UHGV virus genome: UHGV-0174159
Source of the DNA: a virus
Strand: one strand, 5' to 3'
DNA: 10,805 bases
Position numbers and translations under genes: made by a program. Positions 203-9,027 of this stretch are shown piece after piece (position 1 is the stretch's first letter; each line of letters opens with the position of its first letter). The notes beneath the pieces were generated by a model. That model did not search any database, had not been told where the DNA came from, and saw nothing but the letters and a program-made list of their open reading frames with translations.

Positions 203-248
203 GTTTACATAGGGTTTTAGTTGTGATACTATTACCCTATCAACTACT
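203..248 (+). promoter_or_regulatory. T4 early-type promoter cassette, copy 1 (GTTTAC-N18-TACTAT-N6-ATCAACTACT)
   Basis: GTTTAC at 203-208, TACTAT at 227-232, conserved ATCAACTACT at 239-248; inverted repeat ATAGGGT (209-215) / ACCCTAT (234-240) brackets the -10. SD GAGGAG at 249-254 and ATG at 261 follow. Confidence 0.6.
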
Positions 249-2943: not shown

Positions 2944-3417
2944 ATGAAATCATATGCTCAATTTTTAAATGAAGCGGTGTTAAATGAAGCATCTAGCACC
3001 GAAATTCAAGCTGTTGCAAAAGCTGCCATTGCCGCGGGTAAATATTCCTATAAAGATGCTTCCGATGAATCACGATTCCAATTTGCTCGCGACATGAAAG
3101 CAGAAGGATTTACGGGGAATGCTGTTAGTATGGCCTGGAAAAGTTTAGTTGCTACTGGCGCTGCTTTTGCAAAGGCTTCGGGTAAACCTGCTCCTAAAGC
3201 AGATCCTAAAGTCGCACAAGAGAAAAATATTGTTAAAGGAATTATCTCCAAATATGAAGCTATCCTTAAAGAGCTTTTAGTAATCAAAACTGAAGGCCAG
3301 AAACTTGCGCGAGCTCATAGTTTCAAAGATAATCCACATGTTCACTCTCTTGAGTATGTTGAAGACATCCAAAAAATTATCAAAGACCGCATTTGGTCTG
3401 CTAAACAAATCAAATAA
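2944..3417 (+). CDS. internal-protein-like capsid protein with N-terminal capsid-targeting sequence (157 aa)
   Basis: N-terminus MKSYAQFLNE|AVLNE|A resembles the T4 internal-protein CTS (MKTYQEFIAE) with L-x-E prohead-protease motifs; SD AGGA upstream; bracketed by two near-identical terminators. Confidence 0.7.
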   Translation: MKSYAQFLNEAVLNEASSTEIQAVAKAAIAAGKYSYKDASDESRFQFARDMKAEGFTGNAVSMAWKSLVATGAAFAKASGKPAPKADPKVAQEKNIVKGIISKYEAILKELLVIKTEGQKLARAHSFKDNPHVHSLEYVEDIQKIIKDRIWSAKQIK

Positions 3418-3424
3418 CATTCTT

Positions 3425-3452
3425 AGCCCTAGCCGAAAGGTTGGGGCTTTTT
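3425..3452 (+). terminator. rho-independent terminator, near-identical copy of the 2870-2897 terminator
   Basis: AGCCCTAGCC-GAAA-GGTTGGGGCT followed by TTTTT, immediately after the stop at 3415-3417. Confidence 0.8.
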
Positions 3453-3585
3453 GGTATCTAGGCCTTTCCAGGCCTCTCTAGACATCATTTAGTTTCTACC
3501 CTTTATAATATATTATCCTACCTTTTAATTTCCTCTCCCTGCCCTAGAATTCCCCAAAACTTTTTAAAAATTTTTTCACAAAACT

Positions 3586-3631
3586 GTTTACATCCCTGTT
3601 CTTCCGTGGTACTATATCAATATCAACTACT
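3586..3631 (+). promoter_or_regulatory. T4 early-type promoter cassette, copy 2
   Basis: GTTTAC 3586-3591, TACTAT 3610-3615 (18-nt spacer), ATCAACTACT 3622-3631; same geometry as copies 1 and 3. Confidence 0.6.
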
Positions 3632-3658: not shown

Positions 3659-3922
3659 ATGGATAATTACGGCGAACTGTTCAACTTCTTTATGAAATGT
3701 GTTTCAGAAGATTTCGGTCGTACAGTGAATGATATTAAAGTTATCGGTCCTGATCATCCGATGTTTGAAACCTATGCAGTAATGGGTAATGAAGACGGTC
3801 AGTGGTATACTGTAAAGGTTGTGATTAATATGTTCACGGCAGAAGGTTATGTTAAACTGTCTTCTAAAGTTTACCATGATAACGACGAAATCGCAGAAGA
3901 ATATTTCAATAATATGAAATAA
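3659..3922 (+). CDS. hypothetical protein (87 aa)
   Basis: ORF-track ORF 3647-3922 starts at a TTG; ATG at 3659 lies 6 nt after GGAG (3649-3652). Confidence 0.6.
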   Translation: MDNYGELFNFFMKCVSEDFGRTVNDIKVIGPDHPMFETYAVMGNEDGQWYTVKVVINMFTAEGYVKLSSKVYHDNDEIAEEYFNNMK

Positions 3923-3958
3923 GTTTACACAGGCTCATGATTGAGATATTATGAGCCT
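3923..3958 (+). promoter_or_regulatory. promoter-early stem-loop (PeSL-like): GTTTAC fused to the upstream stop, -10-like sequence in a hairpin loop
   Basis: TAA-GTTTAC (3923-3928); 8-bp inverted repeat AGGCTCAT (3931-3938) / ATGAGCCT (3951-3958) encloses TATTAT (3947-3952), 18 nt from the -35. Confidence 0.55.
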
Positions 3959-3978
3959 ATAACTTTGAGGAGAACATT

Positions 3979-4311
3979 ATGAAACGCAACTTTAGCAAAG
4001 CTTTTTGTAATAGAAATAATTATCCTGAAGAGCTTTTTGAATCTAAGGACTTTAAAGAGTTTAACGAACGTTCTCAAAACATGCCTGTACAATGGGTGTT
4101 AGATTATGCCAAACGTATCTTTGAAGGTGTACGTTGGTTCAGTCCTGATGATGAAGCCCCATATTTTCAAAGGGCATGGTCTATAGTCAATCAAGCTTAT
4201 ATTGATGCTTTAGAAAATATTAATATTATGGATGACGATGCTTTGTTAATCATCGATGAGTCTATTAATAGTAGTATCGATAAATTTATTGATGAATTGG
4301 ACGAAGAATAA
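3979..4311 (+). CDS. hypothetical protein with acidic C-terminus (110 aa)
   Basis: ATG preceded by GAGGAG; ORF track; flanked on both sides by PeSL-like elements. Confidence 0.65.
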   Translation: MKRNFSKAFCNRNNYPEELFESKDFKEFNERSQNMPVQWVLDYAKRIFEGVRWFSPDDEAPYFQRAWSIVNQAYIDALENINIMDDDALLIIDESINSSIDKFIDELDEE

Positions 4312-4348
4312 GTTTACAAACTCTTGGGAGTAGAGTATAATACTCCCA
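4312..4348 (+). promoter_or_regulatory. promoter-early stem-loop (PeSL-like) with perfect TATAAT in the loop
   Basis: TAA-GTTTAC (4312-4317); 8-bp inverted repeat TGGGAGTA (4325-4332) / TACTCCCA (4341-4348); TATAAT at 4336-4341, 18 nt from the -35. Confidence 0.55.
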
Positions 4349-4383
4349 CGGATTTTAAATCTTAATTAACTTAAGGAAATACT

Positions 4384-4977
4384 ATGAACACACTGAAGAA
4401 AATTGTTGAGTTTATTCGCACTAAACTTGGTTCTGCTATGGCTAAAAATCTATCTGTTGAAGAACAGTATACTGCTGCGGCAGCAAAACTACTTGATAAG
4501 ATTAAAGATCTAAAAACTGCTTCTATTAAATCTATTAATGAAGAAAAACGTATTCGTGAACTTATTGTCGAAAAGAATAAGCAGGCCGAATCAAAAGAGC
4601 GTGAAATTCGCAAGCTTCTTTCGGAAGGTCAAGATGTAACAATGCATGCTAAACTCGGTTTACTATATCGTCGAACAGCTGAGCAGTTGACTACTAAAGC
4701 TGATGGTTATGCTGAAATGCGAATTGAAATCGCCAAGAAAGTAGTTGAATTGGATGATGCTCGCCAAGAACTTGCAGTTAAATTGGAATATATCCGTGAA
4801 ACTCGAGCAGCGAATGCACTTGGAATTAGTACTGCTGATGATGTAGTTGAAATTGCAGCACTGACTAAGGTTGATATTGAAGATACTCTTGCTCGAGTTG
4901 AAACCTTTAATGGTAATATTTCTGGGGTTGAAACCACCTCTGCCGATGTTCAGGAATATATTAATTCTCTGAAATAA
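4384..4977 (+). CDS. hypothetical alpha-helical, probably coiled-coil, protein (197 aa)
   Basis: ATG 9 nt after AAGGA; translation is rich in K/E/A/L and reads as heptad-like throughout. Confidence 0.7.
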
Positions 4978-4982
4978 TGATA

Positions 4983-4998
4983 AGGGGCTTCGGCCCCT
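4983..4998 (+). other. stable RNA hairpin with UUCG tetraloop (AGGGGC-TTCG-GCCCCT)
   Basis: 6-bp GC-rich stem closing a TTCG loop directly after the stop of the 4384 gene; no U-tract follows. C(UUCG)G hairpins are a recognised feature of T4 intergenic mRNA. Confidence 0.6.
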
Positions 4999-7266: not shown

Positions 7267-8069
<803 letters not shown>

Positions 8070-8070
8070 T

Positions 8071-8116
8071 GTTTACTTCCTCCAAGGACTTTGATACTAT
8101 ACATTCATCAACTACT
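8071..8116 (+). promoter_or_regulatory. T4 early-type promoter cassette, copy 3, upstream of denV
   Basis: GTTTAC 8071-8076 (2 nt after the TAG stop), TACTAT 8095-8100, ATCAACTACT 8107-8116. Confidence 0.6.
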
Positions 8117-8124
8117 TGGAGGAA
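8077..8124 (+). promoter_or_regulatory. 10-bp inverted repeat able to sequester the denV SD, with the promoter -10 in its loop
   Basis: TTCCTCCAAG (8077-8086) is the exact reverse complement of CTTGGAGGAA (8115-8124), which contains the denV SD GGAGG; the 28-nt loop carries TACTAT and the predicted start region. Confidence 0.5.
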
Positions 8125-8553: not shown

Positions 8554-9027
8554 ATGAAAACATATCAAGAATTTATCACTGAAGCAGCTATTAATTCTCA
8601 AATTATTGCTGAATCTTTTACTGATCTTTTGAAATTTAAAAAAGGTCAAAAAATCACTGCTGTATTGGATGATGGTACAGAAGTTGAGATGGATGTACAG
8701 GGATATAATTATGCAGTAGATGGAAAACTGTATAATAAATCCCATGCTAAATTTGATTCATTTGACGACTTTGTTAATACAGTTGAAGATGAAAAAACTC
8801 GTAGATCAATTTCAACTGGTGATGCTAAGGTTCTTATGGCACACGGTCATGAACGTATTCGCGCTAAACAGAATAAAATGGGTGAAGATAATTTCGCATT
8901 AGTTGGTTATCAATCTGGTAAACAAACTTATGGCTATCAGCGTACTGCTACAATGTATAATAAAAATGGTAAAATTGCCTTTGTAAATAGTAAAGGTTCT
9001 ATTCAGTACGTTAAATCGTTCAAATAA
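8554..9027 (+). CDS. internal-protein-like capsid protein with CTS (157 aa)
   Basis: N-terminus MKTYQEFITE|AAINSQIIAE|S is almost the canonical T4 CTS MKTYQEFIAE; AAGGA 6 nt upstream. Confidence 0.75.
   Translation: MKTYQEFITEAAINSQIIAESFTDLLKFKKGQKITAVLDDGTEVEMDVQGYNYAVDGKLYNKSHAKFDSFDDFVNTVEDEKTRRSISTGDAKVLMAHGHERIRAKQNKMGEDNFALVGYQSGKQTYGYQRTATMYNKNGKIAFVNSKGSIQYVKSFK

Follow-up and report, generated by a model that had tools for sequence, protein, structure and literature searches.

Candidate PeSL-type promoter hairpins next to stop codons on both sides of a variable single-gene module in a T4-like phage

The virus genome segment UHGV-0174159, 10,805 nt in length and referred to here in its entirety as the window, contains three consecutive small genes, e.8, e.7 and e.6, and the middle one is bordered on each side by a short intergenic element (element 1 between e.8 and e.7, element 2 between e.7 and e.6) in which a predicted early promoter directly follows a stop codon and encloses a hairpin. 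We consider both elements to be, with fair probability, composite regulatory cassettes of the promoter-early stem-loop (PeSL) type of T4-like phages, in which the hairpin marks an RNA boundary. That they are an example of the published PeSL kind, found in the T4 genus, and not a new system is well supported. New supporting evidence comes from covariation within the stems, from the complementary distribution of embedded hairpins and separate terminators, and from a bias of the folds towards the sense strand; as far as the running text of the PeSL papers goes, as distinct from their figures and supplements, the last two are not described there. Sequence data thus lend the PeSL idea independent support within the T4 genus itself. 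The window is a 10.8-kb segment of a Tequatrovirus (T4-like) genome, with 94–97% identity to many Tequatrovirus genomes.

Hairpins within predicted promoters on both sides of e.7

In element 1 the stop codon of e.8 (TAA, 3920–3922) abuts a GTTTAC sequence (−35 box, 3923–3928), and in element 2 the stop codon of e.7 (TAA, 4309–4311) abuts GTTTAC at 4312–4317. Both junctions, at 3923 and 4312, had been reported in a preliminary description of the window and are confirmed by the sequence, as is the position of the 3979–4311 gene between two such elements (Table 1). Element 1 contains perfect 8-bp arms (AGGCTCAT, 3931–3938, and ATGAGCCT, 3951–3958) that as RNA form an 11-bp stem (3931–3941 with 3948–3958, one G·U pair included); its −10 box is TATTAT (3947–3952), its predicted start lies near 3959–3960 and its Shine-Dalgarno sequence is GAGGAG (3967–3972). 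In element 2 the perfect 8-bp arms are TGGGAGTA (4325–4332) and TACTCCCA (4341–4348), the −10 box is TATAAT (4336–4341), the start is predicted near 4348 and the Shine-Dalgarno sequence is AAGGA (4373–4377).

The distance from GTTTAC to the −10 box is 18 nt in both elements, or 17 nt when counted from TTTACA. Both inverted repeats lie inside the promoter, from about −22 to −1, and the stems start 8–13 nt after the stop codon. The 3′ arm takes in the last T of TATAAT in element 2 and, in the 11-bp stem, the ATTAT of TATTAT in element 1. The preliminary description was therefore right about a perfect 8-bp repeat around the −10 at both sites, but it had placed the −10 hexamers in the loop, whereas they are partly in the 3′ arm. 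The predicted fold energies are −16.5 kcal/mol for element 1 (z −5.4) and −14.0 kcal/mol for element 2 (z −2.5), and in these folds the Shine-Dalgarno sequences at 3967–3972 and 4373–4377 are unpaired.

In a promoter scan the two elements are the two best plus-strand matches to sigma-70 promoters in the window, with 11 of 12 positions matched by element 2 and 10 of 12 by element 1. The sequences TTTACA-N17-TATTAT (3924–3952) and TTTACA-N17-TATAAT (4313–4341) fit the consensus TTTACW-N17-TAYWAT that is given in the text on the T4/PST PeSL promoters (PMC4122927), and the early promoter at element 1 was independently predicted by the annotators of fPS-2. The −35 and −10 boxes are kept across genera; the intervening sequence varies. 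GTTTAC occurs 15 times in the window where 5.2 ± 2.2 occurrences are expected, a three-fold excess. The 10.8 kb contain seven perfect inverted repeats with arms of 8 bp or longer and a 3–14 nt loop, compared with 3.0 ± 1.9 in shuffled sequences, and two of the seven fall in the two promoter spacers of elements 1 and 2, each of about 30 nt. The 30 nt upstream of the elements, which are upstream coding sequence, have an A+T content of 80% and 77% (window, 64%). Neither element has a TGn extension before the −10, unlike the promoters at 203 and 3586. The consensus, together with what is known of T4 early promoters, suggests that elements 1 and 2 would be active as promoters.

Pairing is maintained in the hairpins while their sequence changes. 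Five stem versions, GGGAGTA, GAGAGCA, GAGGACA, GGGAACA(T) and GGGACCA, are found among element 2 and its paralogues, in a set composed of the e.6-upstream elements of different clades and of paralogues upstream of motB-like and ndd genes. Here all 77 cells (77/77) are paired, four of the seven pairs are changed on both sides, and there are 16 double changes. The covariation score was reached by none of 500 shuffles, and with slid 3′ partners only 37–55% of the cells would pair. Judged by these sequences, the hairpin of element 2 clearly appears to be under selection and not a chance palindrome. Element 1 is more conserved in sequence; its pair 9–36 alternates between A-U and G-C, its pair 8–37 is U-A, C-G, U·G or a mismatch, and a G·U pair is kept.

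Matches to element 2 were found in 1414 places in 721 records; element 1 is without a paralogue in fPS-2. The paralogues of element 2 that precede motB-like and ndd genes have the 5′ part (GTTTACAAACTCTTG) in common with it and carry different, still complementary stems (Table 1); the ndd and e.6 copies of Mosigvirus have the same stem version. We also considered a target of RegB, as the 5′ arm of element 2 contains GGAG, and rejected it since this motif is absent from the other stem versions. RB69 (L034 and L035 in our sample) has a repeated promoter-hairpin family of its own, GTTTACA...TAGGACTATGTTATAGTAGTCCTATCAAA, with at least five copies in 80 kb and one stem throughout; this family comes nearer to the PeSLs of RB49, which are highly repeated.

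Hairpins of this type are linked to stop codons throughout the genome. For the whole genome of fPS-2 we took element 2 together with the 28 early promoters predicted in the authors' annotation, and sought a hairpin in the 52 nt from the −35 box, with z ≤ −2.5 counted as significant. A hairpin was found in 12 of the 16 promoters that lie at most 18 nt from an upstream stop codon and in none of the 10 separated from one by at least 37 nt (Fisher p = 1.9e-4; Mann-Whitney p = 4e-4, rising to 8.7e-4 when elements 1 and 2 are excluded). Eight of these 10 distant promoters have a separate annotated terminator in the spacer. A motif-based, annotation-free rerun gave 13/17 against 0/10 in fPS-2 (p = 2.4e-4); for the initial 80 kb of RB69, which belongs to a different genus, it gave 9/20 against 0/6 (p = 0.014). 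The folds of the stop-adjacent promoters average −14.7 kcal/mol on the sense and −11.3 kcal/mol on the antisense strand, with the sense strand favoured in 13 of 16 (p = 0.0017); this comparison includes all 16 stop-adjacent promoters, without preselection on sense-strand folds. Embedded hairpins are thus found where a separate terminator would not fit, which suggests that they act where the upstream message ends.

Gene content and homology breakpoints among relatives

The relatives compared were 25 loci with an e.6 homologue from IMG/VR and metagenomes (identified by L numbers), plus T4, fPS-2 and RB69. In the window, T4 and fPS-2, e.7 stands alone between e.8 and e.6. Elsewhere this interval contains a 54-amino-acid open reading frame (ORF) together with e.7, a 58-amino-acid ORF alone, nothing at all, or an unrelated ORF of 132 amino acids that belongs to PHROG 8232 (e.7, PHROG 7266). 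In Mosigvirus the interval holds three other ORFs, one of them a homologue of frd.3. Searches with tblastn against a phage collection yielded 1100 records for e.6, 597 for e.8 and 183 for e.7.

Loci that carry a replacement gene lose homology to the window at 3980–3983, at the ATG of e.7, and regain it at 4304–4307, at the e.7 stop codon and the −35 box. Element 1 remains 3′ of e.8 whatever gene comes next, and is found upstream of three different downstream genes; element 2 remains 5′ of e.6 whatever gene precedes it. The preliminary description had named the absence of the elements from the boundaries of variable genes in related genomes as evidence that would speak against it; across the 25 loci the elements persist at these boundaries. 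Between the window and T4 there is in addition a mosaic block (4121–4383, 50–80% identity), in which the stop codon and −35 box stand out as an island of identity; the block covers the 3′ half of e.7 and ends exactly at the start of e.6.

One element is present in L011 where L012 has two, flanking an ORF, which is compatible with exchange within the stop-codon/−35 repeats. In L012, e.8 and the 132-amino-acid ORF both end in ATGAAATAA followed by nnTGTTTAC (2460–2475 and 2915–2935). A direct repeat of approximately 17–20 nt thus brackets the L012 module, and positions 2915–2935 of L011 represent a single hybrid copy without the ORF.

The Mosigvirus gene directly upstream of e.6 is the homologue of T4 frd.3 (RB69, AY303349.1, 72055–72282, equal to L035 22055–22282; L008 2702–2929; L024 2203–2430). 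In T4, frd.3 sits at the distant frd locus, so that a small gene has moved between hyperplastic regions.

Proposed role of the hairpins and alternatives

The PeSL interpretation put forward in the preliminary description is supported by comparison with the seven sequence-level features of PeSLs (Arbiol et al., 2010). Five are present outright: a sigma-70-type early promoter, a stem-loop located in the −35 to −10 interval and reaching into the −10, a start codon preceded by a Shine-Dalgarno sequence on the 3′ side, small genes of unknown function in the surroundings, and boundaries that coincide with replacements and deletions among relatives. Two are present in part, namely the upstream stop codon, where the AT-rich stretch is coding sequence, and dispersed repetition. 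According to the text on the PeSLs of phi1 and RB49 (PMC2839356), a stem-loop overlapping the −10, between −35 and −10, is their commonest position. As described there, these PeSLs also resemble elements 1 and 2 in leading from a stop codon through a sigma-70 early promoter to a Shine-Dalgarno sequence and ATG, in their location in hyperplastic regions and, in part, in having dispersed copies. They differ in their −35 box (TTGACA, here GTTTAC), in the stems, which are polyG/polyC in RB49 and AT-rich and of 7–11 bp here, and in the extent of conservation, with copies conserved over approximately 100 bp in RB49 whereas those flanking e.7 share 12 nt plus the −10. Moreover, that text gives promoter and terminator activity and mini-circles as experimental results in RB49 and phi1.

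The T4/PST PeSLs, as presented in the text of Comeau, Arbiol and Krisch (2014; PMC4122927), come from the same genus, have the same promoter consensus and were likewise proposed to play a role in differences between close relatives. Their stems, of the form AGNA-loop-TCNT, are drawn just upstream of the promoter, whereas the hairpin of elements 1 and 2 is inside it. Both layouts occur in fPS-2 in a complementary manner, with an embedded hairpin at stop-adjacent promoters and a separate terminator at promoters with a long spacer.

Canonical T4 early promoters (Hinton, 2010; PMC2988021) share with elements 1 and 2 the GTTTAC −35 box, a good −10 and the same spacing, and reading by the unmodified host RNA polymerase immediately after infection would be expected. 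In contrast to these promoters, with their UP and TGn sequences, elements 1 and 2 have no TGn, have the end of a coding sequence of 77–80% A+T in place of an UP element, and contain an embedded hairpin. A further comparison is offered by the T4 genes e, soc, 49 and I-TevI, in which hairpins with an internal promoter sequester the ribosome-binding site (PMC3014915). Elements 1 and 2 are like them in that the 5′ arm is upstream of the start of the internal promoter and that the structure is confined to transcripts derived from upstream. They differ in that both arms are upstream of the start and the Shine-Dalgarno sequence is free, and in that the promoters are early sigma-70 and not late promoters. 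With both arms upstream of the start and a free Shine-Dalgarno sequence, elements 1 and 2 cannot block downstream translation. Sequestration of the Shine-Dalgarno sequence by elements 1 and 2 was rejected, as the sites stay unpaired in the predicted folds.

Elements 1 and 2 also resemble the intercistronic stabiliser hairpins of bacterial operons, for example REP elements, in that the hairpin has no U-tract and is located just past a stop codon, where it might block 3′-exonucleases and uncouple the decay of adjacent cistrons. They differ from these in being much shorter than REP elements and in overlapping a predicted promoter.

We propose that each intergenic region (56 or 72 nt) would, from the previous stop codon on, constitute the host sigma-70 early promoter of the next gene, with a hairpin of 7–11 bp inside the promoter, its 5′ arm in the spacer and its 3′ arm reaching from the end of the −10 to about −1. 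Because the arms are upstream of the start site, RNA initiated at the element's promoter should lack the hairpin, which only transcripts coming from upstream would contain. In such read-through RNA it would mark the 3′ boundary of the upstream cistron, would attenuate or pause transcription and hinder 3′-exonucleases, and would substitute for the separate terminator hairpin found upstream of less compact T4 promoters. Each small gene would be a self-contained expression cassette, and the conserved intergenic cassettes are where homology resumes after relatives swap, lose or gain the enclosed gene. The hairpins probably act as RNA on read-through transcripts, since they lie upstream of the predicted starts, are without U-tracts and fold better on the sense strand. 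An attenuator, a pause site or a 3′-exonuclease barrier seems more likely than a canonical intrinsic terminator.

Several observations weigh against this proposal. No U-tract follows the hairpins of elements 1 and 2, whose 3′ flanks are ATAACTTTGAGG and ACGGATTTTAAA (after other stem versions, ATGGATTATAAA or TGGATAATAAAA), and a terminator scan of the window left both hairpins uncalled, though it called 2870–2893 and 3425–3448. T4 and 113 other records keep TAAGTTTAC and a −10 in element 2 without a stable stem (−2.9 kcal/mol, z +0.4), and the hairpin is therefore dispensable for expression of e.6. The hairpin-less element 2 is apparently linked to the T4-type allele of e.7, itself found in 114 records; as T4 has no hairpin at the e.7–e.6 junction, this may explain why the locus escaped attention in the model phage.

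The e.7-less loci L004, L006 and L021–L023 likewise count against the proposal, as in these a deletion from 3966/3981 to 4330 removes the 5′ arm of element 2 and destroys the stem. We considered in-register exchange between elements 1 and 2 as their origin and rejected it, the junction running from the e.7 Shine-Dalgarno region into the spacer of element 2. Evidence on recombination is mixed, this deletion being commoner than the L011 arrangement. The sequence common to elements 1 and 2 consists of only 12 nt (AATAAGTTTACA) plus the −10, and within-genome recombination homology is poor for this reason. Genome-wide, four of the 16 stop-adjacent promoters of fPS-2 are without a significant hairpin, and the sense bias is partly compositional, as the distant promoters lean the same way, to a lesser extent and without significance. 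Finally, a literature search found no transcript 5′- or 3′-end data for the T4 e.6–e.8 loci.

Following the "promoter-terminator" reading of the PeSL papers, the hairpins might instead be efficient Rho-independent terminators, with each gene transcribed from its own promoter only. This seems unlikely, although the text of PMC2839356 states that the stem-loop of a phi1/RB49 PeSL cut reporter expression as strongly as rrnB T1. The complementary distribution of embedded hairpins and separate terminators would fit a terminator as well. The lack of a U-tract after either stem, and a scan that called the true terminators at 2870–2893 and 3425–3448 but neither hairpin, led us to reject elements 1 and 2 as members of the intrinsic terminator class. 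Their stems are also AT-rich and of just 7–11 bp, unlike the polyG/polyC stems of RB49, and they stand 8–13 nt past the stop codon, within reach of a terminating ribosome. A ribosome terminating at this distance from the stem would interfere with folding of the hairpin.

It is also doubtful that the inverted repeats act as DNA, forming hairpins or cruciforms in single-stranded or supercoiled DNA that serve as hot spots of recombination or template switching and drive gene shuffling, PeSL mini-circles included, instead of serving gene expression. Compensatory substitutions over a long divergence imply purifying selection on function; selection for evolvability is weak. With a symmetric cruciform, neither G·U pairs nor a sense-strand bias would be expected. 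Stems of 7–8 bp with loops of 8 nt are poorly extruded as cruciforms, and the hairpins are tied to stop-codon adjacency, a feature of transcripts. Such a role would account for the coincidence of module boundaries with the elements, for the recombinant junctions inside the spacer of element 2 in L004, L006 and L026, and for the paralogous copies at other loci and the relocation of the frd.3 homologue to the e.8–e.6 locus.

Quite improbable is an inverted repeat that tunes the promoter, either as a palindromic operator for a dimeric regulator or as a spacer or discriminator feature affecting the open complex. The repeat is wholly within the promoter, at about −22 to −1, and T4 early promoters hold conserved information beyond −35 and −10 (PMC2988021). 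No such repeat occurs, however, in strong canonical early promoters whose upstream spacers are long, and it is therefore not a requirement; in the open complex the 3′ arm alone would be unwound. A protein operator or palindrome was rejected, as the sequence varies with pairing kept and the paralogues within fPS-2 differ (GGGAGTA, GGGACCA). That the repeats arose by coincidence, as functionless by-products of AT-rich intergenic sequence, is very hard to believe: the stems are short and about three perfect 8-bp inverted repeats per 10.8 kb occur in shuffled sequence of the same composition, but two of the seven fall in the two promoter spacers, with fold z values of −5.4 and −2.5, the covariation is strong and the genome-wide association is seen in two genera.

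Returning to the hairpins as boundaries of read-through RNA, we tentatively raise the possibility that promoter-embedded hairpins are a general device of T4-type phages for telling transcripts apart by their origin, the 5′ arm always being upstream of the start of the embedded promoter and the structure thus confined to read-through RNA. A 3′ arm that includes the Shine-Dalgarno sequence, as in e, denV and several genes of fPS-2 and RB69, would silence translation of read-through RNA; elsewhere (elements 1 and 2 and most stop-adjacent promoters) the hairpin would replace a separate terminator and insulate at the RNA level, by ending or stabilising the upstream message. If such a general device exists, every small accessory gene would be a portable, self-contained cassette. 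The elements are relevant to the annotation and engineering of T4-like therapeutic phages, as they mark where genes can be exchanged without disturbing their neighbours.

Related arrangements and neighbouring features

A third promoter-hairpin is found upstream of trna.4, with a fold of −15.5 kcal/mol (z −3.6) and the upstream stop codon 19 nt before the −35 (Table 1). A second small hairpin, TAAACAATTT / AAGTTGTTTA (184–207), overlaps the −35 box of this element. At denV, a 10-bp arm in the promoter spacer (TTCCTCCAAG, 8077–8086) pairs with CTTGGAGGAA (8115–8124), the denV Shine-Dalgarno sequence (−18.5 kcal/mol, z −4.0), and denV of T4 is arranged likewise but with other arm sequences, TCTCCTGTAG and CTACAGGAGA. 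On this model, read-through RNA of denV should be translationally silent and promoter-initiated RNA should not, which would be the mechanism of gene e with an early promoter. The hairpin in the leader of gene e (lysozyme), with a fold of −15.5 kcal/mol and z −5.3, corresponds to the documented translational control of T4 gene e, where the ribosome-binding site is hidden in early read-through RNA (PMC3014915). The trna.4, denV and gene e arrangements have one logic, the structure being present only in transcripts started upstream.

The early promoter cassette that the preliminary description had placed upstream of the 3659–3922 gene was found as well, without an embedded hairpin (−0.9 kcal/mol, z +1.3). 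It comes after a long AT-rich spacer and the terminator at 3425–3448, and is homologous to the predicted early promoter at 68205–68234 of fPS-2; dispersed copies of the cassette with at least 90% identity are present in fPS-2.

Table 1. Genes, promoters and hairpin elements discussed in the text; positions refer to the window unless another record is named.
Feature	Position	Strand	Description
e.8 early promoter	3586–3615	+	canonical T4-type; GTTTAC 3586–3591; TG-extended −10 TACTAT 3610–3615
e.8	3659–3922	+	87 amino acids, PHROG 2678, function unknown; conserved left flank
Element 1	3920–3978	+	entire e.8–e.7 intergenic region (56 nt after the stop)
e.7	3979–4311	+	110 amino acids, PHROG 7266, function unknown; variable single-gene module between both elements
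Element 2	4309–4383	+	entire e.7–e.6 intergenic region (72 nt after the stop)
e.6	4384–4977	+	197 amino acids, PHROG 1203, function unknown; conserved right flank
Third promoter-hairpin, upstream of trna.4	203–240	+	GTTTAC 203–208; arms 209–221 / 228–240 enclose −10 TACTAT 227–232
denV variant	8071–8124	+	early promoter two bases past a TAG stop; GTTTAC 8071–8076; −10 TACTAT 8095–8100
Gene e leader	7267–7302		two late-promoter motifs TATAAATA inside hairpin AATACCTTCTA / TAGGAGGTATT covering the Shine-Dalgarno sequence
Element 2 paralogue, fPS-2	LR215722.1, 6146–6170
Element 2 paralogue, slur07	L033, about 1200–1255
Element 2 paralogue, OLB35	L032, about 1210–1260
RB69 promoter-hairpin family	record positions about 76445, 69240, 67945, 57675 and 19006

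The window is antiparallel to the T4 map and comprises ipI, trna.4–trna.2, the tRNA cluster, e.8–e.2, nudE, e and denV. A Pfam search with e.8, e.7, e.6 and the replacement ORFs returned no significant family, and a search of Rfam at elements 1 and 2 gave no match at the gathering threshold, with only chance-level matches (E near 0.2). Directly after e.6 there is a C(UUCG)G hairpin (AGGGGCTTCGGCCCCT, 4983–4998), which is annotated as a terminator in fPS-2 and has no clear U-tract on the plus strand.

Other parts of the window also vary in gene content. Between trna.2 and the tRNA cluster lies an ORF of 171 amino acids (1124–1639) without an equivalent in fPS-2 or T4; it matches RB69ORF151c in size and position and represents another variable module. 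An ORF of 157 amino acids (2944–3417) is located between two near-identical GAAA-tetraloop terminators (2868–2898 and 3423–3453; TTAGCCCyAGCCGAAAGGTTGGGGCTTTTT), and T4 has a single terminator copy and no ORF at this site. The 2944–3417 ORF resembles a cassette that was gained or lost between terminator repeats, in parallel to the promoter-flanked modules. Together with the ORFs at 7788–8069 and 8554–9027, it begins with MK(S/T)Y.(E/Q)F(L/I).E, which is how the T4 internal head proteins IPII and IPIII start (MKTYQEFIAE), and judging from this sequence motif the three ORFs probably encode variable injected internal proteins. The start of the 7788–8069 ORF overlaps the stop codon of e in an ATGA sequence.

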